From: Thermoproteota archaeon
GTDB taxonomy: Archaea; Asgardarchaeota; Njordarchaeia; Njordarchaeales; Panguiarchaeaceae
DNA length: 59,002 nucleotides
NCBI GenBank assembly: GCA_024720975.1
Contig: JANJXX010000006.1
Coordinates: forward strand, 1-59,002
Direction of reading: 5' to 3'
Positions 7,005 through 54,866 of this stretch are shown piece by piece; positions within the stretch are counted from its first letter, which is position 1, and each line of letters starts with the position of its first letter. Under the pieces are notes generated by a model. It did not search any database. It was not told the origin of the DNA and worked only from the letters and a program-made list of their open reading frames with translations. Position numbers and translations under genes: made by a program.

Positions 7005-7041
7005 TAAACATCTTTCTAATAGTGAGAAGAATGATAGATAG

Positions 7042-7077: not shown

Positions 7078-7134
7078 GTAACTGGGAAGTATGACTTCTT
7101 CAATCTAGATTATTTCAAAGCAAAATAGTACATC

Positions 7135-17179: not shown

Positions 17180-17297
17180 CAATCCCACCCGCGGGAGGTG
17201 GCTAGTCAGGATTACCAAGAATAGAACTTTGTTAGCATGAATTTTTAATAATAGACGCAAATTTATAACTGAAAGCTCGTCCTTTAGGAAGAGAAGG

Positions 17298-34933: not shown

Positions 34934-35278
34934 GCCTCACACCAGAGAATAGAGTTTGCTATATCACAGATGAAAATTTTTTAAAAAAAAGATGACTACA
35001 TTTCATTAAAGACATTTCAATCACTTCCTTTAATGTCTCTGGGGTATCTACAAACTATCTGGTAGATGGAACATTTGCATAGGCATCCTCTGCATCTTAC
35101 ATACAATAGTGCTTCTTTTAGCTCGTGGACCTCCTGAATTTGATTTTTCTATATCTACCAATAGCTTAAGCGGAAAGGCTGCGTATTTGTCCCTTTGGTG
35201 TACTTTCGTGGTTTATAGAAACTAGTTGCGTGCTTCTTCGGAACCATCTACAGAACCAAGATCTGAGGTATATGTTAT

Positions 35279-35515
35279 GACTGAAAGCCTTGCCATTTAG
35301 GGCAGGAGTAATATAGTAAGACTTATAAGTTCTGTATCTCTTGGTACGTTCCTAGAGCTAGCATGCGATTCAAAGCAAAAATAATAGCTCCAAGCCCGTA
35401 CTATGCGAGGCAGAGTAATTCACCTGAGGGATCGAACTCATGCTGAACTAACAGGAGCTGGAGACGTAGCCTGAACCTCTCCTCAGAACGCTTGTTTCCC
35501 AGGACGGAAGATCAG
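35279..35515 (+). mobile_element. 237-bp non-autonomous IS200/IS605-type element (left end, TATA-like box, omegaRNA-like interior, right end; no ORF)
   Basis: TTAT|GACTGAAAG plus hairpin ... CAGAAC plus decayed hairpin plus GATCAG|. The interior is homologous to the 46746 copy. Confidence 0.75.
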
Positions 35516-36192
35516 TAAATATAGCTTAAGAATCTTGTTCTATATTCTTCTAAGGTAATGTTACCCCTTAATTCACCAGCATCGATTAGCATTACTCTCC
35601 CTGGTAACTGCAGGGGGAGGGCCAAATCACGTGTTGCAATGACTTTCTTAGTGTGCTTTCTTCGGATAAAATCTATGACGCGCCTTCTATTTTCTATATC
35701 AAGCATGCTAGTAGGCTCATCGAGGAAGATATACTCAAGATCATCGAGCACAAAAACCCTACAGAGGGAAACAAGCTGAGCCTGACCTGAAGATATATCT
35801 TTTCGCCTCTTATTCTCTATATTCTCCAGTCCAAACTCTCTCAGTATATCTCTAGCCCGCTCTGCAGCCTCATTTTTGGGAATACCTCGGAGGATTAGAG
35901 GAAGAGCCACGTTATCCACTACTGTGCCCCTTAGGAGGATTGGCTTTTCATGAACATACGCTATACTCTTACGTAACTTTAGTAGCTTTCCACTTCGCCA
36001 GGGGTTTTCTCCATTATATAGTACTTCTCCCTTTGTCGGAGGAATTATTAGCGACATTAACTTTAAGAGTGTCGTTTTTCCTGAAGCATTTTGACCAATG
36101 ACATAGGTTACACTATCACTCAATGTTAAGCTTATTCCTTTAATTATGGGGCTTTTTCCATGAAAGTACCAGACATCCTCAAGCCTAATCAC
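35512..36192 (-). CDS. tupC: ABC ATPase, tungstate/molybdate TupC-like
   Basis: GQNASGKT, ISSGQAQ, IFLDEPT; H-loop reads IATRD; 4-bp overlap with the permease. Confidence 0.75.
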   Translation of the reverse strand: MIRLEDVWYFHGKSPIIKGISLTLSDSVTYVIGQNASGKTTLLKLMSLIIPPTKGEVLYNGENPWRSGKLLKLRKSIAYVHEKPILLRGTVVDNVALPLILRGIPKNEAAERARDILREFGLENIENKRRKDISSGQAQLVSLCRVFVLDDLEYIFLDEPTSMLDIENRRRVIDFIRRKHTKKVIATRDLALPLQLPGRVMLIDAGELRGNITLEEYRTRFLSYIY

Positions 36193-36827
36193 TCTTTGTA
36201 CACCTTCAATAACCTTACCATTAATGATATTGAAACTAGCACTAGCACCAGTATGCCACCGAGATAGAAAGCTGATGTAAAATCTCCCTTCGAAATAGCT
36301 GCCGCTATAGCTGTTGTTAAGACGCGAGTTCGACCCTCAATATCTCCCCCAACAATTAGAGCTATACCAAGTTCACCGATAGCTCTTGAAAAGACTAATA
36401 AGAGGATTACAAGAATTTCAGGTAATGTTTCACGCAGCATTATTAAATCAGCGGTTCTATAATCAGCTCCTATCGAAATTACCAACTCCCAGTAAGTGTT
36501 TCTTGCATTGAAGAATACATCATAACTTAGTGAAACAAGCCAAGGAGTTATTAACAGCGCCTGACCTATTATTATAGCATATGGTGTATAGAGAAGATTG
36601 AGAAATCCAAGTAAACCTGTGCTGCTTAGAAGTGTACTCAGAACTAGACCAATAAGTACAGTTGGAATCCCAACTAAGCTCGTGAAAATGCTTACAATTA
36701 CTGCTGAGACCTTAGTCCTACTCCTAGAAATTGCTAGCGATAGAGGAATCGACCACAGAACCGCTAGAAGCACAGCTGAAAAAGAAATCGCTATAGACCT
36801 TAGCGTTATGTCCAACAAACTCTCCAA
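36189..36827 (-). CDS. tupB: ABC permease, tungstate TupB-like
   Basis: GIPTVLIGL, LLYTPYAIIIGQALLITP and FSRAIGELGIALIVGGDIEGRTRVLTTAI motifs. Confidence 0.85.
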   Translation of the reverse strand: MESLLDITLRSIAISFSAVLLAVLWSIPLSLAISRSRTKVSAVIVSIFTSLVGIPTVLIGLVLSTLLSSTGLLGFLNLLYTPYAIIIGQALLITPWLVSLSYDVFFNARNTYWELVISIGADYRTADLIMLRETLPEILVILLLVFSRAIGELGIALIVGGDIEGRTRVLTTAIAAAISKGDFTSAFYLGGILVLVLVSISLMVRLLKVYKE

Positions 36828-36988
36828 GAGCTCTCACCTGTCTCGTTAGACACCAGTATTACGCATCTCTCCAAAAACTTTATCCTTTAAGATTCCCCTG
36901 GTAATATACATTAATATATTACATGCCTATGACTACAATAGGTATTTATATAAATTCTGGTTTTCCCTGATCCTTCGGTGAAAACGTT

Positions 36989-38359
36989 ATGATTGATGAT
37001 TTATTCTCACAAATTGAAGCACGATACAAGCGCTTTGATATCCGCTATGAGATTGCATCTATCCTGACTATAAAATTAGTAAGAGGAAGCATTGAAAAAC
37101 TGCATGAGATGAGATCAGCCGGCTACGCAATTAGGATCCTTGAAGATGGCAATGTAATGCATATATCTACAACTGGAGAAGAAATTGAACCACAGATTGC
37201 ATTTAAGCTAAGGTACCCATGGACAAAGCCGATCGACCTAGCGCCAGTACCTGCCGTCAAGGATAACGTCAATGTAATAGCTTCAAAGCCACTGGAGCAT
37301 ATTGATGTTGATGAGAAAGTTTCTCTGCTTAGAGAGCTTGACCAAATCCTCGTTGAGGCCGGTATTGAAAATCGAGACATACGATACAGAGAAATTATTG
37401 TTGAGAAGCATATTAAAAGTTCAGACGGTACGGACGTACGCATGAGAATTCCATATGCACATATTCTTATGACGGCCAGTTACAAATACCAAGATAAAAT
37501 TGCAAGTATTAGGAGATCCTGGGGTATAATTGGAGGATGGGAACTAATGAATACTGATATGGTTAGGGATATCTTCAGGGATGCGTCAGAGAAAGTAAAA
37601 ATCAGTTCTCAAGCAAGATCAGTCAAGCCCGGAGTGTATAATGCAATTGTTGACGGCGATCTAAATCATCTGCTAGCCCATGAAGCATTTGGACATGCAT
37701 CTGAGGCAGATGAACTGCGAACAGGATCCATTCTAAAAGGCAGAAGAGGCAAGAAGGTGGCAAGTTCTCTGATAAATTTAGTTGATGACAAGAAATTCGA
37801 GGTGAATGGAATTAGAGGATTTGGTTGGATACCGTATGACGACGAAGGAGTAAGCGGTGGCAAAACTTATATAATTAAAGAAGGAATTCTTAATAGCTTT
37901 CTCTCTAACAGAGAAACGGCCTTTGAATTTAAACTCACGCCGACAGGTAATGGACGAGCTCAGGATTGGATGAACCCCGCCGTTGTTAGAATGACTAACA
38001 CCCTAATAGAACCAGCAGATGTGAAGCTTGCCATGAGTAATGATGAGCTTATAGAGGAGCTTAGAAATGGTTTGCTCTTAAGGTTTGGCCGAGGCGGAGA
38101 AGTTAATCCCATGGCTGGGGTATTCACTTTCGGCGTTCAAGAGGTTTATCTCATTGAGAATGGTGAAATTAAGGAACAAATGGCAAGTACAAGCATTTCT
38201 GGAAATATACTAACAACTCTAAAGAACATAACTGCCATTGGAAAGGATTATGATAGACCGGAAATCGGGGCTGGATTTTGCGGAAAGGCAATGCAAATGG
38301 TTCCTGTCGGCGCTTGTGGTGTATGGTTACTCATCAAAAATATTCATGTTGGTGGTTAG
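36989..38359 (+). CDS. tldD: TldD metalloprotease subunit
   Basis: HEAFGHASEAD zinc motif, YDDEG, GNGRA, RMTNT, CGK ligand. Confidence 0.93.
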   Translation: MIDDLFSQIEARYKRFDIRYEIASILTIKLVRGSIEKLHEMRSAGYAIRILEDGNVMHISTTGEEIEPQIAFKLRYPWTKPIDLAPVPAVKDNVNVIASKPLEHIDVDEKVSLLRELDQILVEAGIENRDIRYREIIVEKHIKSSDGTDVRMRIPYAHILMTASYKYQDKIASIRRSWGIIGGWELMNTDMVRDIFRDASEKVKISSQARSVKPGVYNAIVDGDLNHLLAHEAFGHASEADELRTGSILKGRRGKKVASSLINLVDDKKFEVNGIRGFGWIPYDDEGVSGGKTYIIKEGILNSFLSNRETAFEFKLTPTGNGRAQDWMNPAVVRMTNTLIEPADVKLAMSNDELIEELRNGLLLRFGRGGEVNPMAGVFTFGVQEVYLIENGEIKEQMASTSISGNILTTLKNITAIGKDYDRPEIGAGFCGKAMQMVPVGACGVWLLIKNIHVGG

Positions 38360-38360
38360 A

Positions 38361-39773
38361 ATGGATGTGGCTAAAAAATCGCTAGAAATCGCTAAGGAGC
38401 TTGGAGCAGATGCTACTGAAATATTCCATGGAAAGACGTTAGTAAAGATTATCTGGGTTGAGAAAGATATACTAAAACCAAGATACCTCGAAACAGAGGG
38501 CTTGGCTTTTAGAGTGGCTAAGAATGGAAACATAGGTTTCTCATATACGCTTCACTTAAGCGAAGATCATATAAGAAAAACGATAAAAGCAGCAATAAGG
38601 AGTGCAGAACTCAAGGGCAGAGATCCAAATTATGTAGGTCTCCCAGCCGCGAAAAGTATTACATCTAACTACATTAGGGAGGATATAAGAGACACTAGCC
38701 TGGAGGATCTCGGAAAGATATACAATGATTCATGGTCATTGCTAAAGGGAAATAAGAAAGTCACACTGATAGCAGGAAGTTCAATTTACTTTGAAGGACA
38801 TTACAGAATCCTCAACACAGAGGGTGTTGATAGTACATTAAAAGGAAATGCTATAATCATAGCGCTATTTGCTTTGACGCAAGAGATACCACCGAACGTA
38901 GTTGCTGAGTTCTTGGTCGAGAGGAAGAGAGCCATAAAAGTTGAGGAAATTGTAGAAAGGCTTCTAGGAAAAGCTGAGAGAGTTCTGGGTTGTAAAGAGG
39001 TAAACTACTCTGGCAAACCTGAAGTCATACTGGCACCTAGTGCACTTGAGCCACTGCTATGGATTTTCATAGAGCAAATAATGGCATCTCGAATAAAGGC
39101 CGGAATGAGCCCATTCACAAAGGAGAGCTTGGGTCAAGAAGTTGCAAGCAAAAACGTTGATATAATAGATGACCCTTATAGTGAGAAATCAAAATTTATA
39201 GCAGATGTAGATTTCGAAGGCATTCCAACAAGACGAAAACCTTTAGTTAAATCCGGAAGACTCACAACAATACTTAATGACTTCTACCATGCTAAGTTAT
39301 TCGATTTAGAATTATCAGCTAATACTATAAGGTTTGCTCCCAACATCTTTGATCCAGTACAAGTGGAACCGGCGATATCTCCATGGTTTATCACATTTGA
39401 GGGCAAAGAAAAAAGCCTCAACGACATCATAAGCGAGGTAGATAGAGGATTCTTAGTAGAGCAAGTCATGGGGGCACACCAAGCAGACCCCGTTAGTGGC
39501 AAGTTCTCTGTGCCAGCACTCGCGGTATATATAGAAAATGGAGAACTCAAGCATCCGATTAGGAACGTCATGCTAAGCGGAACCATTGGTGACGTCCTCA
39601 AAAATGTTGATGTTATAAGCAAGGAAAGAGAACTCTCCGGCATGGGGGCCGTAGAGGCACCATATGTGCGAACTAGTGGAATTGATGCATCCGCTGTTAA
39701 GGCACCTCTGAGCTACAGAATTCAAATGAAGATAGCAAATCTTCTACTCAGGCTCGGAGTAATAAAATTCTAA
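38361..39773 (+). CDS. tldE: TldE/PmbA non-catalytic subunit
   Basis: DFEGIPT, GAHQADPVSGKFS, IENGE and MLSG motifs; no HExxH. ATG lies 2 nt after the tldD stop (track start 38238 is too long). Confidence 0.9.
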   Translation: MDVAKKSLEIAKELGADATEIFHGKTLVKIIWVEKDILKPRYLETEGLAFRVAKNGNIGFSYTLHLSEDHIRKTIKAAIRSAELKGRDPNYVGLPAAKSITSNYIREDIRDTSLEDLGKIYNDSWSLLKGNKKVTLIAGSSIYFEGHYRILNTEGVDSTLKGNAIIIALFALTQEIPPNVVAEFLVERKRAIKVEEIVERLLGKAERVLGCKEVNYSGKPEVILAPSALEPLLWIFIEQIMASRIKAGMSPFTKESLGQEVASKNVDIIDDPYSEKSKFIADVDFEGIPTRRKPLVKSGRLTTILNDFYHAKLFDLELSANTIRFAPNIFDPVQVEPAISPWFITFEGKEKSLNDIISEVDRGFLVEQVMGAHQADPVSGKFSVPALAVYIENGELKHPIRNVMLSGTIGDVLKNVDVISKERELSGMGAVEAPYVRTSGIDASAVKAPLSYRIQMKIANLLLRLGVIKF

Positions 39774-39785
39774 AAAATATGAGAA

Positions 39786-40289
39786 TTAGGAGTTATCTTT
39801 TTCTTTTCCTATATTCTTAGAGCAGACAAGGATTACCTCTTCCCAAGTATCGGGCCTCTCAGCGATGCTAAACAGGATTCTATCTAGTATTTCTTTATTC
39901 TTCCTCACCGCATTGGCTAATGCTTCAGGCCAGATACCACAGAGAGCTACTCCCGCCTTAATTAATATCATCAAGAAACCATACTTTCTATTCCCTTTAT
40001 CCGCAGCTAAGATTATAAAATACTGATCAAGATTCACATCAACTTCCTCTGGGGGCTTCACATCTTTTATATTATTCCATGCATAATAGTTCTCTCCCCT
40101 CCCTATCATCTCAACTATTTTCTCTAGAAATGATCTCTTTAAGATTGGTACACCACCAAAAATATCCACTACATCAGAAAAATTCATTCCTATATCCATA
40201 GCCTCCCCAGAACGAGGCTCTTTCCCCTCAAGAGTAACTACCCATTGCCGAGTCAATTTATACAACCTAAGCAATTTAAAAGAAGACAA
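39786..40289 (-). CDS. Hypothetical protein
   Basis: 167-aa alpha/beta-looking ORF; start uncertain. Confidence 0.6.
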   Translation of the reverse strand: MSSFKLLRLYKLTRQWVVTLEGKEPRSGEAMDIGMNFSDVVDIFGGVPILKRSFLEKIVEMIGRGENYYAWNNIKDVKPPEEVDVNLDQYFIILAADKGNRKYGFLMILIKAGVALCGIWPEALANAVRKNKEILDRILFSIAERPDTWEEVILVCSKNIGKEKDNS

Positions 40290-40523
40290 TTAAAATAAGT
40301 TATATAAAAACAAAACATATAAGTATACTACAACCAAAAGAGAAAATCCATGAGAAAATATATAACGCTTGTCGATATCAATCGGGGTAACATAATTCAC
40401 GCAATTGACCTAAACTAGTCAACGAAAGACAGACACAAGGTATATACCGCGTCTTTATTATTGCATTACTATTATTATATTTCATTTTACAAATTCATAT
40501 AAGTTCGGGCTGAGGTATTTGAT

Positions 40524-42572
40524 ATGAATAATAGGGCACGCATCCTAGTACTATCGATGCTTGTAGCCCTAGTAATGATGCCCTTACAAACAGTCGCAAC
40601 AACCTACAATATCTTAGAGAAAGCAATCCCAATAAGCACACACGAACCGATTAATAATATGGACGCAACAAGAGAAATGCCCTCCGCGAGATTAAGAAAT
40701 CTTGATGTTGAGATTAAGCACACTCCAATCAAACGCTTACTAATAGAACCGAAATTCCAAAACATCATCGTGATTCCTGCAGGTAACACAACAATAATTA
40801 CTGGTAATCAGACATACACTGATACTGGATTCGAGGTATATGGCAACCTGACAATAGTTGATGCAAATGTAATATTCAATGGGACTAGTGGAATAATTGC
40901 AAAGAATGGAAGCATTGTCAAGATAGTCGACTCTAAAACGGAATGCTATCAAACTTCAATATACACTATAGATGCAGAAGCTAACACTACAATCACTGTA
41001 GAAGGGGGAGAAATAGTCGGCTGTACTGAATTCTCTATTGGTCACAACTATGCGGATATAGGAGTAAAAGCAACCCTAACAATTAAGAACTCTAAGCTCA
41101 TTGATACACCACTCTATGCAATGTACTCCGATGTGACCATCAATTATGTTGAAGCTTTAGCGGAGGTTGGCGGAGGATACGATGCAATAACATTGGAAGG
41201 AGCAACTGCAACAGTCGAAAACTTAAACATTTGTGGAAAGAGTGGCCATGAATTCACTACTGGCCTTCACTTAAATGGAGTAGTCAGTACACTAACAGGT
41301 GTTAATGTAAATGGAACTTATCTTGCTCTATTTATGGAAAACTACACAAGCGCTGTGGTAAGAAACTGTATTTTTAAGAATAACTTGTTAGATATTGAAA
41401 TCGTCGTCGGCGTGGGGATCTCCATCGAGAACTGCAAATTTAATGCCATTAGCGTCGCATACTCAGTGGGTGTGAGTATTATTGGCTGCCAAATTGAAAA
41501 GGCAGCAGGAGAATATTCACCAATGTATTTTCCACTCTACTTCACTGATACAGAGAATGTAGCGCTGATAAATAACACTATGATAGGCCTATCACCAGTA
41601 TTTTACGGTTCTAGGTTTTACCATTTCTCAACGCATAAGATAGAGGGTAATAAAGTTAATGGGAAAAACCTATTATACTTAGTGAATGCGACAAACGAGG
41701 TAATAACTGAAGAATATGGAGCGATAATCCTAGTAGGTGTCGATAACGTAGTCATAGGCAAGCAAAATATATCTGACGTGACTTTAGCAATGGAGATAGT
41801 ATTCTCGAAACATGTGACTACAGAAAATCCACTGATAAAAAATGTCGTGTATGGGATGTACATATTCGGTTCAGATGTCATGATTAAAGACGGCAAGATA
41901 AAAGACGCTCTTGCGGGTATATGGGCAGAAGGATCGAATGTATCTATCAATAATGCTTACATGAAATACATACAGGAATATGGTATTTTCGCTAAGAACG
42001 CGACAATATTCGTTAACAGGACTCAAATTGTTGAAAGCGGGATTGGTATTATAATAAATGTCGGTAAATTAGAGGTTATGAATTCAGTAATCTATATGAA
42101 TGCTCTTGGAATATCGGTGGGGAAAGACACGAACACAACTGAGGTGCATTACTGCAGCATATACACAAACATGCAACATGGCATCTATTCAGAGGCTGCA
42201 ATTGTCATCAATGCATCTTACAACTGGTGGGGCGTAAATGGAGCAGCACCTGAGCTCAAGGAGTCCGGCGAGCCATTTGATCCCGAAGAGGTTTGGGGTG
42301 ATTTCACCGATGACACCTTCACGAAGCCTCTTAATGAGCCTATGTGGCTTCCATCTGAAGAAGGAGAAGAAGGCCCACAGCCTCCTCCACAGCCTCCTCC
42401 CGAAGAGGAAGGAGGAGAAGGTCCTGGAGGCGGTCTACCTGGAGTACCTACATCGGGTGTACTCGTCGCCTTAGCCTTAGCAATAGTGGTGGCTGCTATA
42501 ATAGTCATAATTCGCAGAAGGGTCCCGGTAGCTAAGATTGCAGCGATGGCTATTCGTGGGAGAGGAGCATAG
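40524..42572 (+). CDS. Secreted right-handed beta-helix (NosD/CASH-like) surface protein with Pro/Glu linker and C-terminal TM anchor
   Basis: Signal peptide; repeated I.NC/GI.. units; N.VNGK..LY; INASYNWWG; EEGPQPPPQPPPEEE linker; TM followed by RRR. Confidence 0.85.
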   Translation: MNNRARILVLSMLVALVMMPLQTVATTYNILEKAIPISTHEPINNMDATREMPSARLRNLDVEIKHTPIKRLLIEPKFQNIIVIPAGNTTIITGNQTYTDTGFEVYGNLTIVDANVIFNGTSGIIAKNGSIVKIVDSKTECYQTSIYTIDAEANTTITVEGGEIVGCTEFSIGHNYADIGVKATLTIKNSKLIDTPLYAMYSDVTINYVEALAEVGGGYDAITLEGATATVENLNICGKSGHEFTTGLHLNGVVSTLTGVNVNGTYLALFMENYTSAVVRNCIFKNNLLDIEIVVGVGISIENCKFNAISVAYSVGVSIIGCQIEKAAGEYSPMYFPLYFTDTENVALINNTMIGLSPVFYGSRFYHFSTHKIEGNKVNGKNLLYLVNATNEVITEEYGAIILVGVDNVVIGKQNISDVTLAMEIVFSKHVTTENPLIKNVVYGMYIFGSDVMIKDGKIKDALAGIWAEGSNVSINNAYMKYIQEYGIFAKNATIFVNRTQIVESGIGIIINVGKLEVMNSVIYMNALGISVGKDTNTTEVHYCSIYTNMQHGIYSEAAIVINASYNWWGVNGAAPELKESGEPFDPEEVWGDFTDDTFTKPLNEPMWLPSEEGEEGPQPPPQPPPEEEGGEGPGGGLPGVPTSGVLVALALAIVVAAIIVIIRRRVPVAKIAAMAIRGRGA

Positions 42573-42702
42573 TCTTCCTACTTCTATTTTTTAGTCTTCC
42601 ATTTTTAACTTTTCTTTCCTAAAGTCCACACAATTAAGTTAGAGTCACACAATTCTATGTTTATAAAAAAGAGTAGGAATTATATGCTTATACTATTTAG
42701 CT

Positions 42703-44373
42703 TCAAAGATGCACGCCGAGTACGGTGAGTAGAGCTAGGATAAAACCTACTATTCCTTCGCCACCTAGTATTCCAGATGCTGCGATTATTCCCTCTTTTT
42801 CCGTCTTGTTGCCTCTCTGGGCAAGTAGTAATCTTATCGTGCCTCCTATAGCTGCCAGTATAGCTAATGAGAAGCCTAGGAATATGCCGACGCCAAATGC
42901 TATAACACTTAGTGGAATTTTTCTGCCTTGTTTTTCAAATGTACTCATGAGACCCTCAAGTAAGAATCCTGCTAGTATTCCCCCTATGAAGAATTCTGGT
43001 GAAACTTTTCCTACGAGTACTGATGCGACAAGTTTCGATTGCGCAGCCGTTGGGTATTGGAGAGATAATACTTCGGGATGCGCCTTAAGGATGACTATTA
43101 ATGCCAGGGAAGCTGCTATTCCACCTACTATTGAGGCTATCATGTCGCCGTAGGCTATATCAGCTGGTCTAGTTCCTATGATCTTGGCACTCTTGAAGTC
43201 ATGACCTATGTCTCCAGCCAGTGCTGATGCTATAGATACGAATGCAGTTAACAAGATTGCTTGATTAAGGTCCATAGTTACACCAAGAAAGCCTAGGAAT
43301 TGCATTGTGAATATACCTACGAGTAATCCAAATTGTTCGAGTGGGTCTATGTTAGTCTCTCCAGTAGTTTTTCCAGCTATTGTGCTCATGATCCATGCTC
43401 CTATAACACCCAGGAGGGCTCCAAGTGGATTTATCCCAATGATTACTAGTAGGAAGTAGCTAACTATAGAGAGAATCAGAGGAAGTCTTAGAATTAATGG
43501 AACAGACTTTAGCGTAAAGAAGGCTTTATACACTTCTCCAGATCTTGGAAAAGCTTTGAAGCAAAGAAATCCTATGCCTGCGCCAAGAACAATGCCCATA
43601 CCAAAATTGCGGACTGGGGTCATAAAGTCTCCATACCCAATCACTTGAAATATAGGCATCAATATTACCCAGCCAGCAATGGCTCCTGCGAACCATGAGA
43701 ATGAAGGTACAGGCCCCATTATGTACCCAGCACCAGCTGCCATGAGGAGTGGAAGTACCTGAATAATTATAACAACTGACAGAACGTGAATCTCCCATGA
43801 TAGTATATTGATCTTTAGCATCCATCTAGCAATAGTGAATGCTGCAGCTAGGAGGCCAAAAATGAATAGGATTTTCGCTTCATGACCACCTTTCTCGATT
43901 GCTATGAGGACTTCAGCTCCCGCTCGTCCCTCCGGAAACGGTAGATCCTCACGATCTATGGTAATCCTCCTGACGGGGAGGGAGAGAGCAACACCGAGAA
44001 GAGCACCAACAATGCTTATAGCAATAATAGTACTCATTGGAGGCAAAGGAAGGTTGTAATTGTAGTTTTGGGAGATGACTATGTAAGCCGGTATCGTGAA
44101 TGCCACTCCCGCAGCTATTAGCCCACCAACACTGCCCCCTGCTTGAGCAACATTAGCCTCATGCATGCTGTGACGTCTATTAGATACTACATCCAATGCA
44201 ATGAGAGAAACATATGAGACAACTACAGACAGTATCACTGGCCATGGCAAAGCAGAGAGAAATATCGCAACGTAAGCCGAGGATACTCCGACAAGCATAG
44301 AGATTAAACAAGCAATGAGAATTGATCTTAGGCTTATTCCACGCTCTCCCTCAAATTCAGGATTCTGCTCCAC
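42703..44373 (-). CDS. OPT family oligopeptide transporter
   Basis: LPFPEGRAGAEVL, GETNIDP, DIGHDFKSA and ASGILGGEGI motifs. Confidence 0.9.
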   Translation of the reverse strand: MEQNPEFEGERGISLRSILIACLISMLVGVSSAYVAIFLSALPWPVILSVVVSYVSLIALDVVSNRRHSMHEANVAQAGGSVGGLIAAGVAFTIPAYIVISQNYNYNLPLPPMSTIIAISIVGALLGVALSLPVRRITIDREDLPFPEGRAGAEVLIAIEKGGHEAKILFIFGLLAAAFTIARWMLKINILSWEIHVLSVVIIIQVLPLLMAAGAGYIMGPVPSFSWFAGAIAGWVILMPIFQVIGYGDFMTPVRNFGMGIVLGAGIGFLCFKAFPRSGEVYKAFFTLKSVPLILRLPLILSIVSYFLLVIIGINPLGALLGVIGAWIMSTIAGKTTGETNIDPLEQFGLLVGIFTMQFLGFLGVTMDLNQAILLTAFVSIASALAGDIGHDFKSAKIIGTRPADIAYGDMIASIVGGIAASLALIVILKAHPEVLSLQYPTAAQSKLVASVLVGKVSPEFFIGGILAGFLLEGLMSTFEKQGRKIPLSVIAFGVGIFLGFSLAILAAIGGTIRLLLAQRGNKTEKEGIIAASGILGGEGIVGFILALLTVLGVHL

Positions 44374-44829
44374 TGGTGATCACTGGACTAAGCTTTCCGA
44401 TTGAGGTGTCAAAGAATCATTTCAGCATTTAAGTATTAAATATATATCTCAACCATTGCATTAATACACAGCGGAGCAATGAATCCTAAGCTTTACGGTT
44501 ATAATCGCCTGAGCTATGGCTGGGTTGCTTTTCAATTCTTCGGGATAATGCCTCCCTGGAAGACTTAGTTGTAGCCCGAGGACAATTGACACTACTGAAA
44601 CTATCCTAGGAGATACGCACTTCCGTCTTGATAGTTACAAACGTCATGGCGTAACATGTTTAGCGCTGTCTTGCTTAACTCATTTCTTGGCAGTCAAAAC
44701 ACTCAGTTAAGGAGTTTTTCAATTCTACTAGTCTTGTAGAGCTTTCACTCATTTATCAGATTTATTCCATAAAAGCAATGCCGATAAAAAAAATCAGAAA
44801 GAGGTTTTAGTAGGCTTTCAAGTAATTTT

Positions 44830-45522
44830 TTACCAGGCCTTCACAAGGAAGAATCTTATCCCCCTGTCCATATAATGGTAGTTCGGTTTTGAATAGCTGT
44901 ATTCGAGGCTGTGGAGATGTTTGAGAATGAGACCATATTTCTTGAAGTACTTAAGCATCGTTGAGATTGGTATTAATGTATTTGTGAGCCTGTCCCATAT
45001 AACGAGTGGGTATCCCATGTATAATTCACGAATGAGAGCATCAAGGACCAATACCGCCTTATCATTCATGAGCTTTACTAGATTAAAGAAAGCCGTTTCC
45101 GTCCTCTCTAAAGAGTCAGTGTGATTAATCACAAATCCAAGACATAGAACAACGTCAAAGTAACCGTGAGCATCGATGAAATCATCAACACTCTTGGGAT
45201 CGAAGATATCCAATAGATACGTTCTCCCTTCAAATTCAGAATACTTTGCCGTTGCTATATTTAGAAGCTCTGGGAGTATATCAGTAAGGTATACTTCAAA
45301 ACCATAACGGAATGCAGCCCTAGATAAACGACCAGTTCCTCCTCCAACATCAATGAGACGTCGCTTGCCTTCCTTGCCATTCTCGTTTAAAAGTCCAAGT
45401 ATTAGACTCCACATATCAAAAGTAAAGTCTGACTCTGAAGTTATCAGCTCCTCATCCATAGAGTTATAGAACTTAGACAACCTTTCTTTTTCGTGGTCTG
45501 ATATGTACCCACTATCTCCCAT
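44830..45522 (-). CDS. Class I SAM-dependent methyltransferase
   Basis: Motif I LIDVGGGTG, acidic TDI, FDVVLCLG.V.NH, VLVLD. Confidence 0.85.
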   Translation of the reverse strand: MGDSGYISDHEKERLSKFYNSMDEELITSESDFTFDMWSLILGLLNENGKEGKRRLIDVGGGTGRLSRAAFRYGFEVYLTDILPELLNIATAKYSEFEGRTYLLDIFDPKSVDDFIDAHGYFDVVLCLGFVINHTDSLERTETAFFNLVKLMNDKAVLVLDALIRELYMGYPLVIWDRLTNTLIPISTMLKYFKKYGLILKHLHSLEYSYSKPNYHYMDRGIRFFLVKAW

Positions 45523-45921
45523 CTAAGACACCAAAACTGGGGGGAGCGTTCCCTTTTGCTTACCCCTACCTTTCTATAATGCCTCTATACCAATATAATA
45601 CATTAATGAATAATCCTATTAATATATATGCGTAGTATTACTCTATTGCATAATAGTTTCATGAACGCGATATAAATAATCGGAAGAACTGCTATTACTG
45701 CAATTAAGCGTATTATGATGCGATTAGAGAACAGGATAAATATGCGAGATAATTCATTATCGATGCATCAAAAGCAGGTCTATAGCATTAGGCATTAGAG
45801 ACTTCTACAAATCCTTTGTTACGTGGTATATAAACCACAGAATGAATGCACTAGAATTTTACATAATCTATTAAGAAGTACAATTTGCAGTAGTATTCTC
45901 TTTTAGAATGTACCCGGTGAT

Positions 45922-45990
45922 ATGAAGTGGCAGAAAAGAAGAAGAAAGAGGAGAAGAAGAAAGAGGAGAAAAAGCCACCTGCATAGATAG
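45922..45990 (+). CDS. Unannotated tiny ORF: either MKWQKRRRKRRRRKRRKSHLHR (eL41/eS32-like) or, in the overlapping frame 45927-45986, MAEKKKKEEKKKEEKKPPA
   Basis: Purine-rich island in an AT-rich intergenic region, preceded by GGTGA and followed by T-rich terminator-like tracts. Confidence 0.4.
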   Translation: MKWQKRRRKRRRRKRRKSHLHR

Positions 45991-46084
45991 CAAATAAATA
46001 CAACTCTTTTTAAGTTCTCATATTTCTTTTATTCTTCTTTTTCAAAATAAATGATCTTGCTTCCTCCAATAAGGTGTTACCGTA

Positions 46085-46720
46085 GTGGACTTGCTCTTCT
46101 TCTTACCTAAAAGTCTGACACATAATATTAAGCATAAACTAACTGCTAGACATACCTACCGAAAAACTATAATCACATTCAATGGCATCAAACGAGTAAA
46201 GTTGCACGTATATAGTGTTGGCAAAGGTCTGTGTGAAATCCTTGGGCCTCTTGTAGTTGAGTACGATGAGAGGGTCTTCCCACGGTTCAGATATGGAGCT
46301 GATGTAGTGCTTGAGATTTTCAAATTGAGGGAGAAGGAGCAATTCTCCTTTCAGGACATTGTCTACATATTGAAGGATAAGTATAAGTGGCTAGGGCTCA
46401 ATAGATGCACAGTCAAGAGACTCTATGACTTTGTAACAGATATCATTATAAATGCCATTCAGGGATCAGATAGCGATTGCGAGCTCATTAAACTCGTTCC
46501 CGATAAGCTACTACTGTTGATAGTACCCCAAAATAAGAAATTTATAAAAAGTGCACACCCGCCGATACCAGCTGCAAAGAAGGATGTTATATTTGTTAGC
46601 AATAGTGCTAACTCATATCTCTACAAGCTAATAACATACATTGAGCACTATCTGCAAGACAAACAATTCCAGGTCAAAAGTCTATCTAAACCAAATTTTA
46701 AATGGAACCCGCAAGGTTGA
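46085..46720 (+). CDS. Hypothetical protein with a predicted HTH resembling transposase N-terminal DNA-binding regions
   Basis: YGADVVLEIFKLR...SFQDIVYILK...LNRCTVKRLY has an HTH-like pattern; no DDE catalytic domain is evident. Confidence 0.55.
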   Translation: MDLLFFLPKSLTHNIKHKLTARHTYRKTIITFNGIKRVKLHVYSVGKGLCEILGPLVVEYDERVFPRFRYGADVVLEIFKLREKEQFSFQDIVYILKDKYKWLGLNRCTVKRLYDFVTDIIINAIQGSDSDCELIKLVPDKLLLLIVPQNKKFIKSAHPPIPAAKKDVIFVSNSANSYLYKLITYIEHYLQDKQFQVKSLSKPNFKWNPQG

Positions 46721-46745
46721 GACTATATTCTTTATAAACAATTAC

Positions 46746-46967
46746 AACAACTGAAAGCTCCGCTCTTCAGGGCGGAAATGATGATATAGCAAGGTTTTAA
46801 ATCCTGTATCCTTTGGTATATCCTGTTAATTCGAGCCATATCCCTGAGCCCTACATTATGCGGGATAAGGTAATACGCCTGAGACTGGCCGGGGCTGAAC
46901 CAGCAGGAGCCAGGAATTTAGCTCAAACCTTTCAGATCCTTGCTCTTCAGATTAAGAAGGAGGTCAA
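46746..46967 (+). mobile_element. About 220-bp non-autonomous IS200/IS605-type element with omegaRNA-like interior (no ORF)
   Basis: TTAC|AAC AACTGAAAGCTCCGCTCTTCAGGGCGG ... CCCTGAGCCC...GGTAAT...CCTGAG...GGGGCTGAACC...AAACCT ... GGAGGTCAA|. Homologous to 35279-35515. Confidence 0.78.
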
Positions 46968-47097
46968 AAGATCTCGCCATTCAGAACTTTGAATATGTAC
47001 GATCTATAGGATTTAAACAATCGCTTCTTTTTTAAGTCTCATTGCTTATGATGTATTCACTGCTGCCTCTGTCATTAGGAGTTTGAGGTGTTTGGAT

Positions 47098-49206: not shown

Positions 49207-49227
49207 ATGTTAAACAATGTTTAACAT
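49207..49227. promoter_or_regulatory. Perfect 10-bp inverted repeat, candidate operator between divergent genes
   Basis: ATGTTAAACA-A-TGTTTAACAT, flanked by additional TATGTTA copies. Confidence 0.5.
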
Positions 49228-50950
49228 TATGTTATACGTAAGAAGGGCTAGGTGTCTTACTCTGTACCAGAGTCCAGAGATCAGAAGCTACCTAGAACAC
49301 ATAGAGAGGGAAACATCAATCTATGGAAAGATCAGTGACGCCACTGCCATAAAACTGGTGGATAGTCTAAGTACTATTAGCAGTGATCAAACTTTAGCTT
49401 CAGCTCTGAGGAAATTCTTCAATGTACTGTCAGGAAGTAAGAGTTGGGATTTTGCATTCTTCGTTCCATATACTATAGATAAGGGCTTAAATGATGCATG
49501 CGTCGCTAATATTGTTAGCGACAGCAAACAAATTCTCATTAGAGCATTTAATGAGGCTGCTAGAATACCGAGTCTTAACGCACAGAATTATGCTTACATG
49601 ACAGTAATTAAAGGTCTGTATTCGTGTGGATTAACCCGCATCGGTGATAATCTCTCTCGCTCGCTAACCAAAAATGTTAATGACATTTCTTCCTTAGAGC
49701 GCTATATGTATGTTGCTAGAGCTATAGCAGTGAAGGATTTTGATGAATCGGACAATGCGTTTATGCTAATTAAAGCGAAAATTAATCAAATCAGAGAAGA
49801 CCTTAGCAAGGCAGTTCTCCTGGTTAAGCTTGCACATCATATATCAAAGACACTTAATGACGCAGAAGGAAAAAGGATTGCCACTGAATGCCTAAGGGAA
49901 AGTCTAGAGATCAAGAACGGTTCAGCTATAGATCACGTAAAGTACCTGTCCTTAGCTCTACCTTATATATTCTCAGTGGATCTGACTCTTGGATCCAAAT
50001 TGCTTGATTCCCTGCTCTATTCAGTAATCTCCAGAAGAAATTGGGTTGAACACTGTAGGCAATTTCTAGAGAATTGTGATCTAGTCATTGATAGTGTTGA
50101 AAGAATTCTTAGGATTGAAAATTGGGTTCACCGCATTTACACAGAGAAACGAATATCTAAGGCGGATTATTACAGGCTTATAGCAGCAACAAGAGGTGTT
50201 ATTGTTTACTTGGACCCATTCTATGCATCTGCCATAATTACTTCAAATCATAGTCCTGTTGCTGGAGTTTCTACTCAGAGCGTTGAAGCTTCAGTTGATA
50301 TAATAAAGAGCCTAACTAGACTCAATATCTCCACAGCTTACGAACTATCTTCAACGTTAATGCGCGAGCTAATTGCCGAGAATAGACACTCAGAAGCCAT
50401 AGAGCTATGCGCCGAGCTGCAACAATACTTTCCTATGAAGACTCGAGAACAGTATGACTTTATCATACTCCCTTCCCTTAAGAAGCTCAATAGAAGCCAG
50501 ATAATTCAACTACTTCCAAGTCTATCATTATTAAACACAAGTAGTGTGGTAGACTTAATTAAAAACCTGTTGAGGAGCATAGAGAAAGTCTCTAATCCAC
50601 TGATACGAGCCCTTGAGGTAGCGAAGATAGCATCAGCAATACATAAAGGTCAGCCAACCTGGAGTAAGCAGCTTCTCTTGTATGCTGAGGAACTTGTGGA
50701 GGGATATGACTGGGAGAAAAAAGCAGATGTTATCGAGATTATCATTGAAACTCTTATAAAAATCGATGAACGAGTTGGTTTAAAGAAGTTCCAGAAATTG
50801 ATAAGTTCAATAGCTGAAACTAATCCCAAAGTAGCAACTCGTATTATCGAAAGACTAATGCCACACTTGAAGTATCATGAAACAAGAACGATAACAAAGC
50901 AACTCCTTCAATATGCTACAGAAAACAAGAAAAATGATGTTAAGGACTGA
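49217..50950 (+). CDS. Hypothetical all-alpha helical-repeat (TPR/HEAT-like) protein
   Basis: 577-aa ORF of amphipathic helices; start uncertain; stop codon supplied by the miniature element. Confidence 0.7.
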   Translation: MFNIMLYVRRARCLTLYQSPEIRSYLEHIERETSIYGKISDATAIKLVDSLSTISSDQTLASALRKFFNVLSGSKSWDFAFFVPYTIDKGLNDACVANIVSDSKQILIRAFNEAARIPSLNAQNYAYMTVIKGLYSCGLTRIGDNLSRSLTKNVNDISSLERYMYVARAIAVKDFDESDNAFMLIKAKINQIREDLSKAVLLVKLAHHISKTLNDAEGKRIATECLRESLEIKNGSAIDHVKYLSLALPYIFSVDLTLGSKLLDSLLYSVISRRNWVEHCRQFLENCDLVIDSVERILRIENWVHRIYTEKRISKADYYRLIAATRGVIVYLDPFYASAIITSNHSPVAGVSTQSVEASVDIIKSLTRLNISTAYELSSTLMRELIAENRHSEAIELCAELQQYFPMKTREQYDFIILPSLKKLNRSQIIQLLPSLSLLNTSSVVDLIKNLLRSIEKVSNPLIRALEVAKIASAIHKGQPTWSKQLLLYAEELVEGYDWEKKADVIEIIIETLIKIDERVGLKKFQKLISSIAETNPKVATRIIERLMPHLKYHETRTITKQLLQYATENKKNDVKD

Positions 50951-50985
50951 CCTCCTCCCCGTCCTAAAGTGCGGGGCTTTCGGTT
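50947..50985 (-). mobile_element. 39-bp single-hairpin IS200/IS605-type miniature element
   Basis: Minus strand reads TTAC|AACCGAAAGCCCCGCACTTTAGGACGGGGAGGAGGTCAG|. Best-preserved short copy. Confidence 0.8.
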
Positions 50986-50998
50986 GTAATCCCAAGCT

Positions 50999-51755: not shown

Positions 51756-51905
51756 CTATAGAGTTGCCCTTTCAAATACAATAAGAGCCATACTCACAAA
51801 CAAAATCATCAACATTATAAGCGCTATTAGGTCCACTAGGACACCCATTACTGACATACCAAGCGCAAGACCCCTAACAAGATCTACACCATAAGTTAGT
51901 GGACT
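51756..51905 (-). pseudogene. C-terminal remnant of an ABC-2 type permease
   Basis: Minus strand reads SPLTYGVDLVRGLALGMSVMGVLVDLIALIMLMILFVSMALIVFERATL*, the typical (N/S)PLTYGVD end of ABC-2 permeases. The 5' part is replaced by the IS. Confidence 0.8.
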
Positions 51906-51976
51906 GTGTCTTCCGTAAAAGTTTTTAAGCTGTTTTAGCTACTATAGATACTTGGAATCAAGAGAGGTACTAGGTG

Positions 51977-52132
51977 GTGTCCGAGAAGCTCTATAGAACT
52001 AGTGAGGTTGCCGAGTTACTGAGCATTAGTGTTTCTACTGTTAAAAAGTGGATAAAGCAGGGTAGACTGCACGCTCTCAGAGTCGGGAAGCTGTGGATGA
52101 TCCCGGAGAGCGAAGTCAGGAGAACACCATAG
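51977..52132 (+). pseudogene. tnpA: HTH-only remnant of IS607 serine-recombinase TnpA (51 aa)
   Basis: MSEKLYRTSEVAELLSISVSTVKKWIKQGRLHALRVGKLWMIPESEVRRTP*; no YARVS catalytic domain; below the ORF-track cutoff. Confidence 0.8.
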
Positions 52133-52138
52133 AAGGGG

Positions 52139-53452
52139 TTGTTGGGAACGGTCACCAAAACTATTCAGAAGACGCTGAAGATTAAGCTTGTACCAGTCTC
52201 CAAGAGAGATAAGGTTCTTGTACATTGCCTGCTAAGCGATTACACAAACCTTCTCACGGATGCTTTGAACATAGTAGTTAAAAACGATGTGAGGAGCAGG
52301 AAGAAGGCTCACGAGTTCTGCTATAGGTATCTCAGAGAAAGGTATCCGCATCTCCACAACAAATACGTTGAAGAAGCATACAAGAGGGCTCTCTCAGTAT
52401 ACAGAAGCTACAGGAGGCTTCTCAGAAAGTGGATGAAGCACAAGCGAGGGAACCCGCCTTCACCACCAAGCGTTGATGTGAACAGAGTGGTTGATCTACA
52501 CATCGATACGTTCAGAATCGAGGAAGAAAACATCTTCAAAATCCTCAGGTTGTCCATTGGTGGTGGCGAGTATGCTAAGTTTATCATGCTGGTTTACGAC
52601 CATGCGTTGAGAGAGCTCAGTAATGCTAAAGTCTCTAACTCGAAGATCATCGTAGATAGAGATGCCCTATACCTTCTCCTAACCATTAGAAAGAATGTTG
52701 AGGTGTTTGAGCACAGGAATAAGCTGGTGATTGATATCAACGAGGATAGCGTAGCATGCCTCCTCGTAGACTATGAGAAAAGTAGAGCTGTGCTCTTCAC
52801 GATAAGCTACAAGATAAGCAGGTTACGAATGAACTACAGGAGGATTCGAAGATCTATTCAGAGAAAAGTGGACAACATCTACGAGAGGAACAAGTTGCTG
52901 GAGAAGTACGGTGCTAGAGAGAGGAACAGAGTTGAGGATATAGTGAAGAAGGTTACAACTGTTATAGCTGAAATCGCTAGAATGCACAAAGCGGATATTG
53001 TTAGAGAGAACCTGGAGAACATGAAGATGAACAGTAGGAAAAGTAGTAGAAAGCTAAACTACAGGCTTCAAACACTTCCATATAGAAAGATGATATTCAA
53101 CCTAGAGTACAAAGCGTACGAGAGAGGCTTTAACGTCGTTGAAGTTGATGCTAAGAAAACCTCTATAACGTGCCCATCCTGCTGGTACGTGGACAAGGAG
53201 AACAGAAGCGACGACAGATTCAAGTGCAAGAAATGCGGATTCGAGTTTAACTCACACTATGTAGCTTGCCTAAACCTCTTCTCCCGCCTCAATGACGGCG
53301 TGGTAGCCATCAGAGGCGGGAGAATATATGCATACCTCGAGGCGGGCTCAGTGGTGCCCGTCGATGTAGCTCCCGATGACCCTGCGATAGGTGAGCAGGT
53401 GACGAGGGAGAAGCCCGTGTTGACAATACCCAAGATAATCAAAAACACCTGA
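52139..53452 (+). CDS. tnpB: TnpB RNA-guided endonuclease family protein
   Basis: RuvC-I VIDINE, RuvC-II VRENL, LEYKA, TSITCPSC..FKCKKCG zinc finger; RuvC-III reads NSHYVACLNL. Confidence 0.93.
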   Translation: MLGTVTKTIQKTLKIKLVPVSKRDKVLVHCLLSDYTNLLTDALNIVVKNDVRSRKKAHEFCYRYLRERYPHLHNKYVEEAYKRALSVYRSYRRLLRKWMKHKRGNPPSPPSVDVNRVVDLHIDTFRIEEENIFKILRLSIGGGEYAKFIMLVYDHALRELSNAKVSNSKIIVDRDALYLLLTIRKNVEVFEHRNKLVIDINEDSVACLLVDYEKSRAVLFTISYKISRLRMNYRRIRRSIQRKVDNIYERNKLLEKYGARERNRVEDIVKKVTTVIAEIARMHKADIVRENLENMKMNSRKSSRKLNYRLQTLPYRKMIFNLEYKAYERGFNVVEVDAKKTSITCPSCWYVDKENRSDDRFKCKKCGFEFNSHYVACLNLFSRLNDGVVAIRGGRIYAYLEAGSVVPVDVAPDDPAIGEQVTREKPVLTIPKIIKNT

Positions 53453-53478
53453 ACAAACCCAAATAAGCAACACGGGCA
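53279..53478 (+). ncRNA. Predicted omegaRNA scaffold overlapping the tnpB 3' end
   Basis: Perfect 12-bp stem TTCTCCCGCCTC/GAGGCGGGAGAA (53279-53324); CGGGCT/AGCCCG and CTCCC/GGGAG stems; TGCCCGT (53355-53361) complementary to terminal ACGGGCA (53472-53478). Confidence 0.7.
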
Positions 53479-54166
53479 ACCACTTTAACTCATCGGGTGT
53501 GCCAATAGCAATTATTTTGCCGAAGTCAATAATCGCTATTCTATCGCACAGAGCATCGGCCTCCTCCAAATAGTGAGTCGTGAGAAGAATCGTTACATCC
53601 TTTTCCTTTTTTATCCTGCGTATAAACTCCCACGTATAAGCCCTGGTGTGGGGATCAAGACCGAGTGTTGGCTCATCTAGGAAGAGTATTTCTGGCTCAT
53701 TAAGCAAACTCCTAGCTATCTCTAGTCTTCTAATCATTCCACCGCTGTATTTCCTCACAGGAACATCTTTCCACTTCTCAAGTCCCATGAATTTCAATGC
53801 ATCAAAAATCCTCTCCTTAAGAACACCACCTGCCAGTCCATATAGCTTTCCATAAACCCAGAGATTCTCGTACCCAGTCAAATTTCTATCCACTGTGACA
53901 TCTTGAAAAACGATGCCAATTTTCTCTCTGACAGCCTTTGACTCCCTTATTACATCATATCCTCCCACGAGAGCTGTCCCCTCAGTAGGCTTTAGAATAG
54001 TAGCTAACATATGTATTGTAGTGGTTTTGCCAGCACCATTAGGACCAAGCAAACCAAAGATTTCACCCTGTGCTATCTCTATATTTATGTGATCAACTGC
54101 CACAAGATTACCAAACCTCTTAGTCAAATTGAAGGTCTTTATTGCTGGTCCCACAACAATCACCAC
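53479..54166 (-). pseudogene. DrrA-like ABC exporter ATPase truncated by the IS
   Basis: GPNGAGKT, YSGGMIRR, LDEPTLGLD, TTHYLEEA, GTPDELK. The ORF then reads into IS sequence (track ORF 53348..54166). Confidence 0.85.
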
Positions 54167-54807: not shown

Positions 54808-54828
54808 AGCAAAGCCCCAGCAATTTAT

Positions 54829-54866
54829 AACTGAAAGTCTCGCCCTTCGAGGTGGGAGGAGGTCCA
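54829..54866 (+). mobile_element. Short single-hairpin copy of the IS200/IS605-type miniature element
   Basis: TTAT|AACTGAAAGTCTCGCCCTTCGAGGTGGGAGGAGGTCCA, just downstream of padR. Confidence 0.75.

Follow-up and report, generated by a model that had tools for sequence, protein, structure and literature searches.

We consider it likely that two intergenic repeats in the genome of an Asgard (Njordarchaeales) archaeon, elements A and B, are gene-less, non-autonomous, IS608-like derivatives of IS200/IS605 transposons, which target TTAC and are orphaned in this genome. A has decayed to a relic, as very probably has B. Both lie in the window, the whole stretch of 59,002 nt that was analysed. Their features are as follows (bit scores are those of R2, a covariance model of the omegaRNA scaffold).

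35279-35515, plus strand: element A, a whole protein-less mini IS200/IS605 element; preceded by TTAT (35275-35278), ending in GATCAG
35279-35306, plus strand: left end of A, with GACTG, the AAAG guide tetranucleotide and the subterminal hairpin CCTTGCC/GGCAGG; homologous to the left end of a full-length Zestosphaera element
35310-35329, plus strand: promoter-like region of A, ATATAGTAAGA CTTATAAG, of putative activity; a homologue of the AAGCTTATAAAC box that precedes tnpA in full-length elements
35373-35515, plus strand: omegaRNA-homologous segment of A (tnpB 3' end and right end), badly eroded (18.4 bits)
35516-35535, plus strand: candidate guide of A, the flank TAAATATAGCTTAAGAATCT, within the 3' end of an ABC ATPase gene on the opposite strand
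46746-46967, plus strand: element B, a whole protein-less mini element; preceded by TTAC (46742-46745), ending in GGAGGTCAA
46746-46776, plus strand: left end of B, with AACAACTG, AAAG and the hairpin CTCCGCTC/GGGCGGA
46783-46802, plus strand: putative promoter region of B, GATATAGCAAGG TTTTAAAT, judged by homology and fit to an archaeal TATA box
46827-46967, plus strand: omegaRNA-homologous segment of B, partly eroded (44.7 bits)
46968-46987, plus strand: candidate guide of B, the flank AAGATCTCGCCATTCAGAAC

Boundaries and layout of the two elements

A preliminary description of this DNA had placed A and B at these coordinates, with a common left-end hairpin, an ATATAG..AAG..TT(A/T)TAA box, four interior blocks and a TCA(G/A) end, and had stated that neither encodes a protein. 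All of this was recovered. The elements are ~61% identical over ~200 nt and contain no protein-coding gene, only ORF remnants of 27 and 59 amino acids that still resemble the C-terminal tail of TnpB.

A and B lack terminal inverted repeats, and the flanks of A (..ATGTTAT / TAAATAT..) and of B (..CAATTAC / AAGATCT..) show no duplication of the target site. The order of a TTAC-type 5' flank (TTAT in A), AAAG and hairpin is also found in two further full copies of this genome, D and E, in short derivatives and in foreign copies. The right ends themselves, GATCAG in A and GGAGGTCAA in B, are kept; the adjoining hairpins are both degraded, as the preliminary description had noticed. These right ends thus fit the ancestry, but it is doubtful that they are still competent. 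A right-end hairpin followed by AGGAGGTCAG is present in D and in canonical relatives.

A converging ABC ATPase gene (35512-36192, minus strand) takes its stop codon from the TCAG end of A. After in-silico removal of 35279-35515, this gene ends in FLSYI* and has the length of its orthologue in the closest species, G003, which ends in FLNIH*. Since the removal restores both a stop codon and the length of the orthologue, the boundaries of A are exact.

Full-length parents and the omegaRNA scaffold

It had been proposed that tnpB was deleted from these elements while the promoter region and the scaffold were kept. Full-length parents found in other hot-spring archaea, and independently made minis found in other archaea, bear this out, and they show that tnpA was deleted too. 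The parents consist of a left end (TTAC, then A(A/C)C(T/C)GAAAG, a hairpin and a TATA box), tnpA, tnpB, and a right end with a hairpin and AGGAGGTCAG. In Zestosphaera (locus L144), the order is TTAC, ACCCGAAAG, hairpin, GCTTATAAAC, tnpA, tnpB, hairpin, AGGAGGTCAG, and tnpA encodes a Y1 transposase (Y1_Tnp, E 1e-36). Both ends of our elements are homologous to this autonomous element. A profile of A, B, D and E also matches the 3' end of its tnpB (E 4e-13), a similarity expected in the preliminary description, as well as full-length or mini copies at L160, L118, L175, L171, L173/L153, L034 and L158. The interior of the four elements shares its ancestry with the final ~150 nt of tnpB and the right end, the region of the omegaRNA; this segment is co-oriented with tnpB and ends at the transposon boundary. 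All five copies, among them a truncated one, C, conserve the promoter-like box, a homologue of the promoter region of tnpA. Canonical copies target TTAC, have AAAG directly adjoining the hairpin foot on its 5' side, and end in TCAG 10 nt 3' of the foot of the right-end hairpin.

These homologies suggest how the elements arose and worked. One ancestral internal deletion probably took out tnpA and most of tnpB, and would have brought two pieces together: a ~90-nt left end, with the TnpA-binding hairpin, its AAAG guide tetranucleotide and the promoter region of tnpA, and the final ~150 nt of tnpB with the right end, the part that encodes the TnpB omegaRNA scaffold in this family. In an active mini-element, TnpA supplied from elsewhere would excise the top strand and insert it after TTAC. 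The left-end promoter would be expected to transcribe the scaffold past the TCAG end into the flank, and this flank, acting as a guide, would let a TnpB from elsewhere cut the emptied site, so that the element is restored. Such cutting of the emptied site is the known role of TnpB guides in homing and retention. Minis of independent lineages elsewhere have different deletion junctions, and always keep the whole 150-nt scaffold even though a bounded element needs no more than 41 nt, which argues that the scaffold was useful to active elements.

To follow the scaffold in the present genome, we used R2, which was built from foreign sequences only, none of them from this genome. Under the covariance model, canonical family members score 90-173 bits; the genome search found exactly D (70.1 bits, E 4e-20), B (44.7 bits, E 8e-12), E (25.7 bits) and A (18.4 bits, E about 3e-3 genome-wide). 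Covariation, a check proposed in the preliminary description, is strong in the model-fitted alignment of 26 family members: 91.7% of cells pair, compared with 37-57% when the partners are slid, and changes on both sides occur in 22 of 31 pairs, a level reached by 0 of 500 shuffles, all figures that the fitting makes lean towards structure.

The copies keep this structure to different extents. Eleven reference sequences from other genomes retain 23-31 of the 31 modelled base pairs. D, which lies outside the window, retains 27 of 31 as well as both hairpins, and still looks structurally intact. B retains 22 of 31 (P4 6/7, P5 5/5, P1 3/5, P2 4/7). Only 16 of 31 remain in A, where P2 (0/7) and P5 (1/5) are lost or nearly so, and 14 of 31 in E. 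In A and E, structure is being lost, not kept.

Copies, partners and alternative readings

A genome-wide count, suggested earlier, added two full copies, confirmed the truncated third copy that had been seen in the window and revealed ~12 short derivatives:

C11:90087-90310: element D, a full copy (family profile)
C17:~585-834: element E, a full copy (family profile)
3588-3691, plus strand: element C, truncated, with the left-end hairpin, promoter-like box and scaffold start but neither TTAC nor right end (profile E 9e-5)
50947-50989, minus strand: short 41-nt derivative, with TTAC, AACCGAAAG, one hairpin and AGGAGGTCAG
54825-54865, plus strand: short derivative directly after a PadR-like ORF (54238-54807)
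7037-7087, minus strand: short derivative flanked by convergent genes; right end degenerate
17257-17303, plus strand: short derivative

The family profile recovered the four full copies with E-values of 1e-65 to 1e-70, a likeness well above chance level, and these are 60-72% identical to one another. The short copies, 41-45 nt in length and four of them within the window, comprise the start of the left end, a single hairpin and AGGAGGTCAG; more than 100 foreign short copies have only a TT(AC) left flank in common. The CTGA end of the copy at 50947-50989 forms the stop of an ORF (49217-50950), and similarity to contigs of four metagenomes ends exactly at 50947. Copies are absent from the orthologous loci of G003. 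Contigs from other studies read through A and B, and no skipping joint or empty site was found at either among four other metagenomes: A and B are fixed in all strains seen.

We then searched for the proteins that would serve these elements. The parent tnpB, sought since the preliminary description, was found in other archaea (Zestosphaera) and not in the elements' own assembly, which is 81% complete. In this assembly, there was no match to the Y1_Tnp domain, tblastn with the Zestosphaera TnpB gave nothing, and tblastn with its TnpA gave only a 38-aa fragment; no intact TnpA and, in the R2 search, no tnpB-linked copy of the scaffold was found. The best TnpB-like match was an IS607-type gene (24% identity, E 0.02). 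The only intact TnpB, the IS607-type protein of the window, shares 24-26% identity with the TnpB of the family over ~110 aa and has no R2 match at its 3' end, in agreement with the earlier remark that its scaffold differs. The system thus appears orphaned, with TnpA left as a 38-aa relic. This orphaned state, the erosion of the right-end hairpins and of several scaffold helices in A and B, and the fixation of the copies mark A as a relic and, very probably, B too; the relic reading, to which the preliminary description had given its closing caveat, is the better one for A and probably for B.

In the main reading of that description, A and B would be working stand-alone omegaRNA genes with their own promoters and guides, for a TnpB encoded elsewhere. 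This reading, extended here to D and E and to a TnpB encoded in the unassembled ~19% of the genome or on a plasmid or virus, appears unlikely. It draws on the promoter-like box of the five copies with its homology to the tnpA promoter region, on the score of B and its retained P4, P3 and P5, on the intact appearance of D, on the full scaffolds of independently derived minis in other archaea, and on the accepted trans use of omegaRNAs encoded by PATEs (PMC10055086). At 81% completeness, and because assemblies break at repeats, the assembly could indeed lack cognate tnpA and tnpB genes. However, the searches gave no cognate TnpB, P2 and P5 are gone from A, the guide-adjacent hairpin is degraded in both A and B, and empty alleles were unseen in the four other metagenomes. 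Moreover, neither the genome nor viral contigs contained a TTAC+guide match for A or B beyond their own flanks, and a second match to the guide of A was absent from the genome at up to one mismatch. Since the guides match their own flanks alone, the only predictable target is the empty donor site, and the "dispersed guide repertoire" that had been proposed is not upheld.

The conservation of the promoter-like box and scaffold blocks among copies of 60-72% identity, together with the intact D, may nevertheless reflect some selection for RNA function. There is a small chance that the tnpA promoter kept in the better-preserved B and D still drives their transcription, and that they serve a TnpB of the unassembled genome or of a co-resident mobile element. 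If so, an Asgard archaeon would keep gene-less "guide-only" elements as trans-acting parasites of a nuclease. More broadly, whole-scaffold minis with different junctions across archaeal lineages, beside scaffold-less 41-nt elements, would then reveal that the guide RNA itself is under selection.

Very improbable is a host-domesticated structured RNA or cis-regulatory element (terminator, leader or sRNA) with no relation to transposon function. In its favour, the copies lie between genes and show fixation across strains, blocks of the scaffold are conserved and the right end of A gives a neighbouring gene its stop codon. Yet the four full copies lie in unrelated gene contexts and orientations, the truncated one is in an unrelated context too, there is no Rfam match, the closest species lacks copies at the orthologous loci, A and E are losing structure, and transposon ancestry explains every feature. 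An RNA read from the minus strand is hardly credible: RNAalifold on four sequences gave a terminal stem, CTGAAAGC/GCTCTTCAG, with G:U pairs when the minus strand is read and C:A when the plus strand is, but this "stem" is only the complementarity of the left-end start with part of the right-end hairpin (loop and 5' arm), which arises because the two end hairpins are near-identical, and the covarying family structure is on the plus strand, co-oriented with tnpB.

Relation to known gene-less elements

The preferred reading, of orphaned IS200/IS605 derivatives, involves no new mechanism: the gene-less design (PMC3119797, PMC10055086) and its presumed use in trans have been published, and A and B are further members of it, mostly relics. 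To the gene-less, omegaRNA-carrying elements on record they add a host among the Asgard archaea (Njordarchaeales) and an archaeal family of IS608-like type. The preliminary description had correctly recognised transposon-derived guide-RNA cassettes from the letters alone. For annotation, the ~230-nt intergenic repeats and the related ~41-nt single-hairpin repeats should be masked as IS200/IS605 derivatives and should not be called new cellular RNAs, terminators or regulatory motifs, and R2 can serve as a scaffold model for one TnpB family of hyperthermophilic archaea, whose TAM is TTAC.

In Geobacillus stearothermophilus, PATEs are minimal gene-less elements with left and right ends that "often encode omegaRNAs" for use in trans by the TnpB of other IS copies, while TnpA mobilises PATEs in trans (Meers et al. 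2023, PMC10055086). A and B have the same minimal design; however, PATEs are bacterial and share their genome with active TnpA and TnpB, whereas A and B are archaeal and degenerate, and their cognate proteins were not found.

OrfB-derived "MITE-like" repeat elements were reported from Acidianus hospitalis W1, where the associated orfB elements insert after TTAC; each genome has multiple copies, and other crenarchaea are reported to have copies as well (You et al. 2011, PMC3119797). They have the design of A and B, which likewise retain relics of the TnpB C-terminal frame, and were described without an RNA reading before omegaRNAs were known (PMC3119797). A. hospitalis has 10 near-full copies, compared with four eroding ones in the present Asgard genome, and the likeness is one of described design; a locus of Acidianus copahuensis (L160) is a clear family member.

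With IS608 of Helicobacter pylori, the IS200/IS605 prototype, the family shares insertion 3' of TTAC, AAAG directly 5' of the left hairpin foot, cleavage on the right at TCAA/TCAG, about 10 nt beyond the foot of the right hairpin in the 3' direction, and the lack of inverted terminal repeats and target duplication (He et al. 2011, PMC3201880). The distance from TTAC to the left hairpin foot is 9 nt in the present family and 19 nt in IS608. Unlike those of IS608, the two hairpins of the family are nearly identical to each other, and the sequences of the family are unrelated to those of IS608.

Mini-elements and their parents

Two protein-free derivatives of IS200/IS605 elements, A and B, had been described from the window as possible stand-alone, promoter-equipped omegaRNA genes, each with its 3' flank as guide for a TnpB encoded elsewhere. 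Their identity and origin are established by the comparisons presented here; however, their present function is not. A and B lie exactly where the preliminary description placed them, align end to end with ~61% identity, and have in common a hairpin, an ATATAG..AAG..TT(A/T)TAA box, four interior blocks and a TCA(G/A) end. Neither encodes a protein, only ORF remnants of 27 aa and 59 aa being present. A profile run against the entire assembly (1.36 Mb in 29 contigs, 81% complete; the window is contig C26) set the copy number at four full copies (E 1e-65 to 1e-70) and one truncated copy. Further, much shorter matches in the same search cover the hairpin alone.

Copies of the element found by profile search
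Full copy A: window 35279-35515
Full copy B: window 46746-46967
Truncated copy C: window 3588-3691
Full copy D: contig C11, 90087-90310
Full copy E: contig C17, ~585-834

At the gathering threshold no Rfam family matched the window, and at E<=10 the 3.25-kb locus around A gave two chance-level matches only, none of them on A. BLAST of B against 40 relatives, a covariance model built from A, B, D and E alone (R1) run on genomes of the same order, and an interior-block pattern run on genome contigs each returned nothing or chance bacterial matches only. Foreign members of the family were reached only via a short-repeat pattern and then Y1 transposase loci, Y1 transposases being present in 4 of the 5 genomes checked that bear the short unit. 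A locus of Zestosphaera tikiterensis (L144) holds a full element with left end, tnpA, tnpB and right end: TTAC is followed by ACCCGAAAG, a hairpin and then ATGAAAGCTTATAAAC; tnpB has one in-frame stop; the right end finishes in GAACCCTCGTCCTTTAGGGCGGGGAGGAGGTCAG. The A/B/D/E profile matches the last ~150 nt of this tnpB plus the right end (E 4e-13), and also full-length or gene-less copies in Acidianus copahuensis, several Desulfurococcales, Caldivirga and Wolframiiraptor. The tnpB of the Acidianus locus is broken, and the Zestosphaera ORF was taken for protein comparison instead. Alignment of the left ends showed that the supposed TATA-like box has its homologue upstream of tnpA in the full element.

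Foreign gene-less minis (for example two identical copies in Desulfurococcales KUA_Bin18, and loci L034 and L158) show the same layout of left-end hairpin, TATA box, ~30 nt, scaffold and right end; the deletion junction common to A, B, D and E differs from theirs. Two genomes of the same genus and one of the same order contain subfamilies that end in GGAGGTCAA and are related to, yet distinct from, this family; some of their members are linked to tnpB. At locus L118 (1528-1651, minus strand), a short element sits inside the tnpB of a Desulfurococcales-type full-length copy, a tnpB that is also split into several ORFs; thus, the elements nest within one another.

The design of A and B is already known (You et al. 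2011, PMC3119797; Meers et al. 2023, PMC10055086): MITE-like repeats of Acidianus hospitalis carry the downstream end of OrfB and adjoin orfB elements inserting after TTAC, with copies also noted in other crenarchaea (You et al. 2011). PATEs, minimal IS200/IS605 elements that retain both ends but no genes, often encode omegaRNAs for use in trans by TnpB of other IS copies (Meers et al. 2023).

The scaffold and its erosion

The consensus fold of nine foreign sequences has five main helices, arranged as P1; P2; P4 around P3; P5 (ACCUCC/GGAGGU) around P6, the right-end hairpin; CAG and the flank follow. A covariance model of foreign scaffolds (R2), built without any sequence of the source genome, matched there only D (70.1 bits, E 4e-20), B (44.7 bits, E 8e-12), copy E (25.7 bits) and A (18.4 bits, E about 3e-3), plus weak matches to short copies; canonical members score 90-173 bits. 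In a model-fitted alignment of 26 members, which leans towards structure, 91.7% of cells pair versus 37-57% with slid partners, both sides change at 22 of 31 pairs, and the observed pairing values were reached by none of 500 shuffles. A minus-strand RNA, prompted by a G:U asymmetry in a four-sequence alifold, was rejected because the parents show that the "terminal stem" arises from the left and right ends being complementary to each other.

Scaffold pairs kept, out of 31
Reference sequences from other genomes (top eleven): 23-31
D: 27
B: 22
A: 16 (P2 0/7, P5 1/5)
E: 14

In both A and B the right-end hairpin is degraded, as had been noticed at the outset. A is a relic and B probably is one too; the best-preserved copy is D, outside the window.

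Cognate proteins, guides and insertion context

In the source assembly (81% complete), the Zestosphaera TnpB had no match by tblastn, and a search for Y1_Tnp domains was likewise negative. Among TnpB-like matches, the IS607-type gene of the window comes closest, with 24-26% identity over ~110 aa; R2 has no match at the 3' end of this gene, consistent with the earlier view that the two scaffolds are unlike. The sole IS200/IS605 transposase trace in the assembly is a 38-aa fragment (contig C23, 26721-26834), which by tblastn shares 58% identity with the Y1 TnpA of Zestosphaera. As for guides, the 16-nt flanks of A and B match only themselves in the genome, no second site having fewer than two mismatches, and the expected targets (TTAC plus the 16-nt guide) did not appear in viral contigs. 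Among the sequencing runs listed as containing this DNA, none is of RNA.

A is flanked by an SBP_bac_5 gene on one side and an ABC ATPase gene on the other; its TCAG end provides the stop codon of the latter. Removal of 35279-35515 restores ...FLSYI*, equal in length to the orthologue of the closest species (FLNIH*), which fixes the boundaries of A. Both A and B are missing from the orthologous loci of that species, where divergence of the intergenic regions prevents their alignment. In other hot-spring studies, contigs running through A (in two runs) and through B (in one) are 98-100% identical, and depth there equals that of the flanks; no joint skipping A or B was seen in contigs of four other studies. 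In these metagenomes, depth reaches 15-1300x at the short unit (50947-50983) and at the IS607-type tnpB. In the opposite reading direction, the right-end CTGA repeatedly provides or borders the stop codon of a converging gene, as at the ABC ATPase gene (35512-35517), ORF 49217-50950 (50947-50950) and an ORF on contig C28 (1565-1568); insertion at the 3' end of a gene is thus tolerated, with about one codon changed.

Short relatives and the IS607-type element

Some 12 short units of ~41 nt occur in the genome, each reading ACAAC(T/C)GAAAG, an 8-bp hairpin and AGGAGGTCAG, with TT directly before.

Short units in the window
7037-7087, minus strand
17257-17303, plus strand
50947-50989, minus strand
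54825-54865, plus strand

The long copies start like the short units, with TTAC or TTAT followed by (A/G)ACTGAAAG and the hairpin, and their ends (GATCAG, GGAGGTCAA, GGAAGTCAG) resemble short-unit ends. Long and short units have the end geometry of IS608, which inserts 3' of TTAC, has AAAG as its guide tetranucleotide, adjoining the hairpin foot on the 5' side, and is cleaved on the right at TCAA, 10 nt 3' of the foot of the right hairpin (He et al. 2011, PMC3201880).

A pattern scan of one genome per species found the short unit in >119 loci. Those listed are almost all in hyperthermophilic archaea (Desulfurococcales, Sulfolobales, Ignisphaera, Caldisphaera, Caldivirga, Archaeoglobi, Nanoarchaeota, Methanomethylicota and Nitrososphaeria), and the copies are near-identical and sharply bounded, with only the TT left flank in common. 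In foreign loci L025-L143 and the window, the single-hairpin element reads ACAACTGAAAG-CCTCGCCC-TTYA-GGGCGGGG-AGGAGGTCAG, always preceded by TT, and joins the initial 11 nt of the left end to the terminal ~30 nt of the right end. Its depth is ~15-120x in four hot-spring metagenomes, where the source genome stands at 2-6x; in IMG/VR it occurs on a single contig. The element has the appearance of a minimal IS200/IS605 "nano-MITE" spreading across phyla, and is not described in the archaeal papers compared here.

The window also contains an IS607-type tnpB element (51902-53484), with a truncated MerR-like HTH (51977-52133) and tnpB (52139-53452). That the short copies at 50947-50989 (minus strand) and 54825-54865 (plus strand) form the two ends of one composite around it was rejected, because an unrelated gene immediately precedes each of them and short copies elsewhere are sharply bounded 41-nt units. 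The IS607-type element reaches 250-1300x in four metagenomes, and in many metagenome contigs ~51936-51958 is fused directly to ~53282-53289, with ~1330 nt missing; such contigs represent gene-less minis of the element, abundant in the communities. In pairwise alignment, FNSHYVACLNL of the window TnpB (residues ~368-378; 53240-53270) stands opposite FNADIAAAYNI of Zestosphaera, which aligns a His of the window protein with the RuvC-III Asp.
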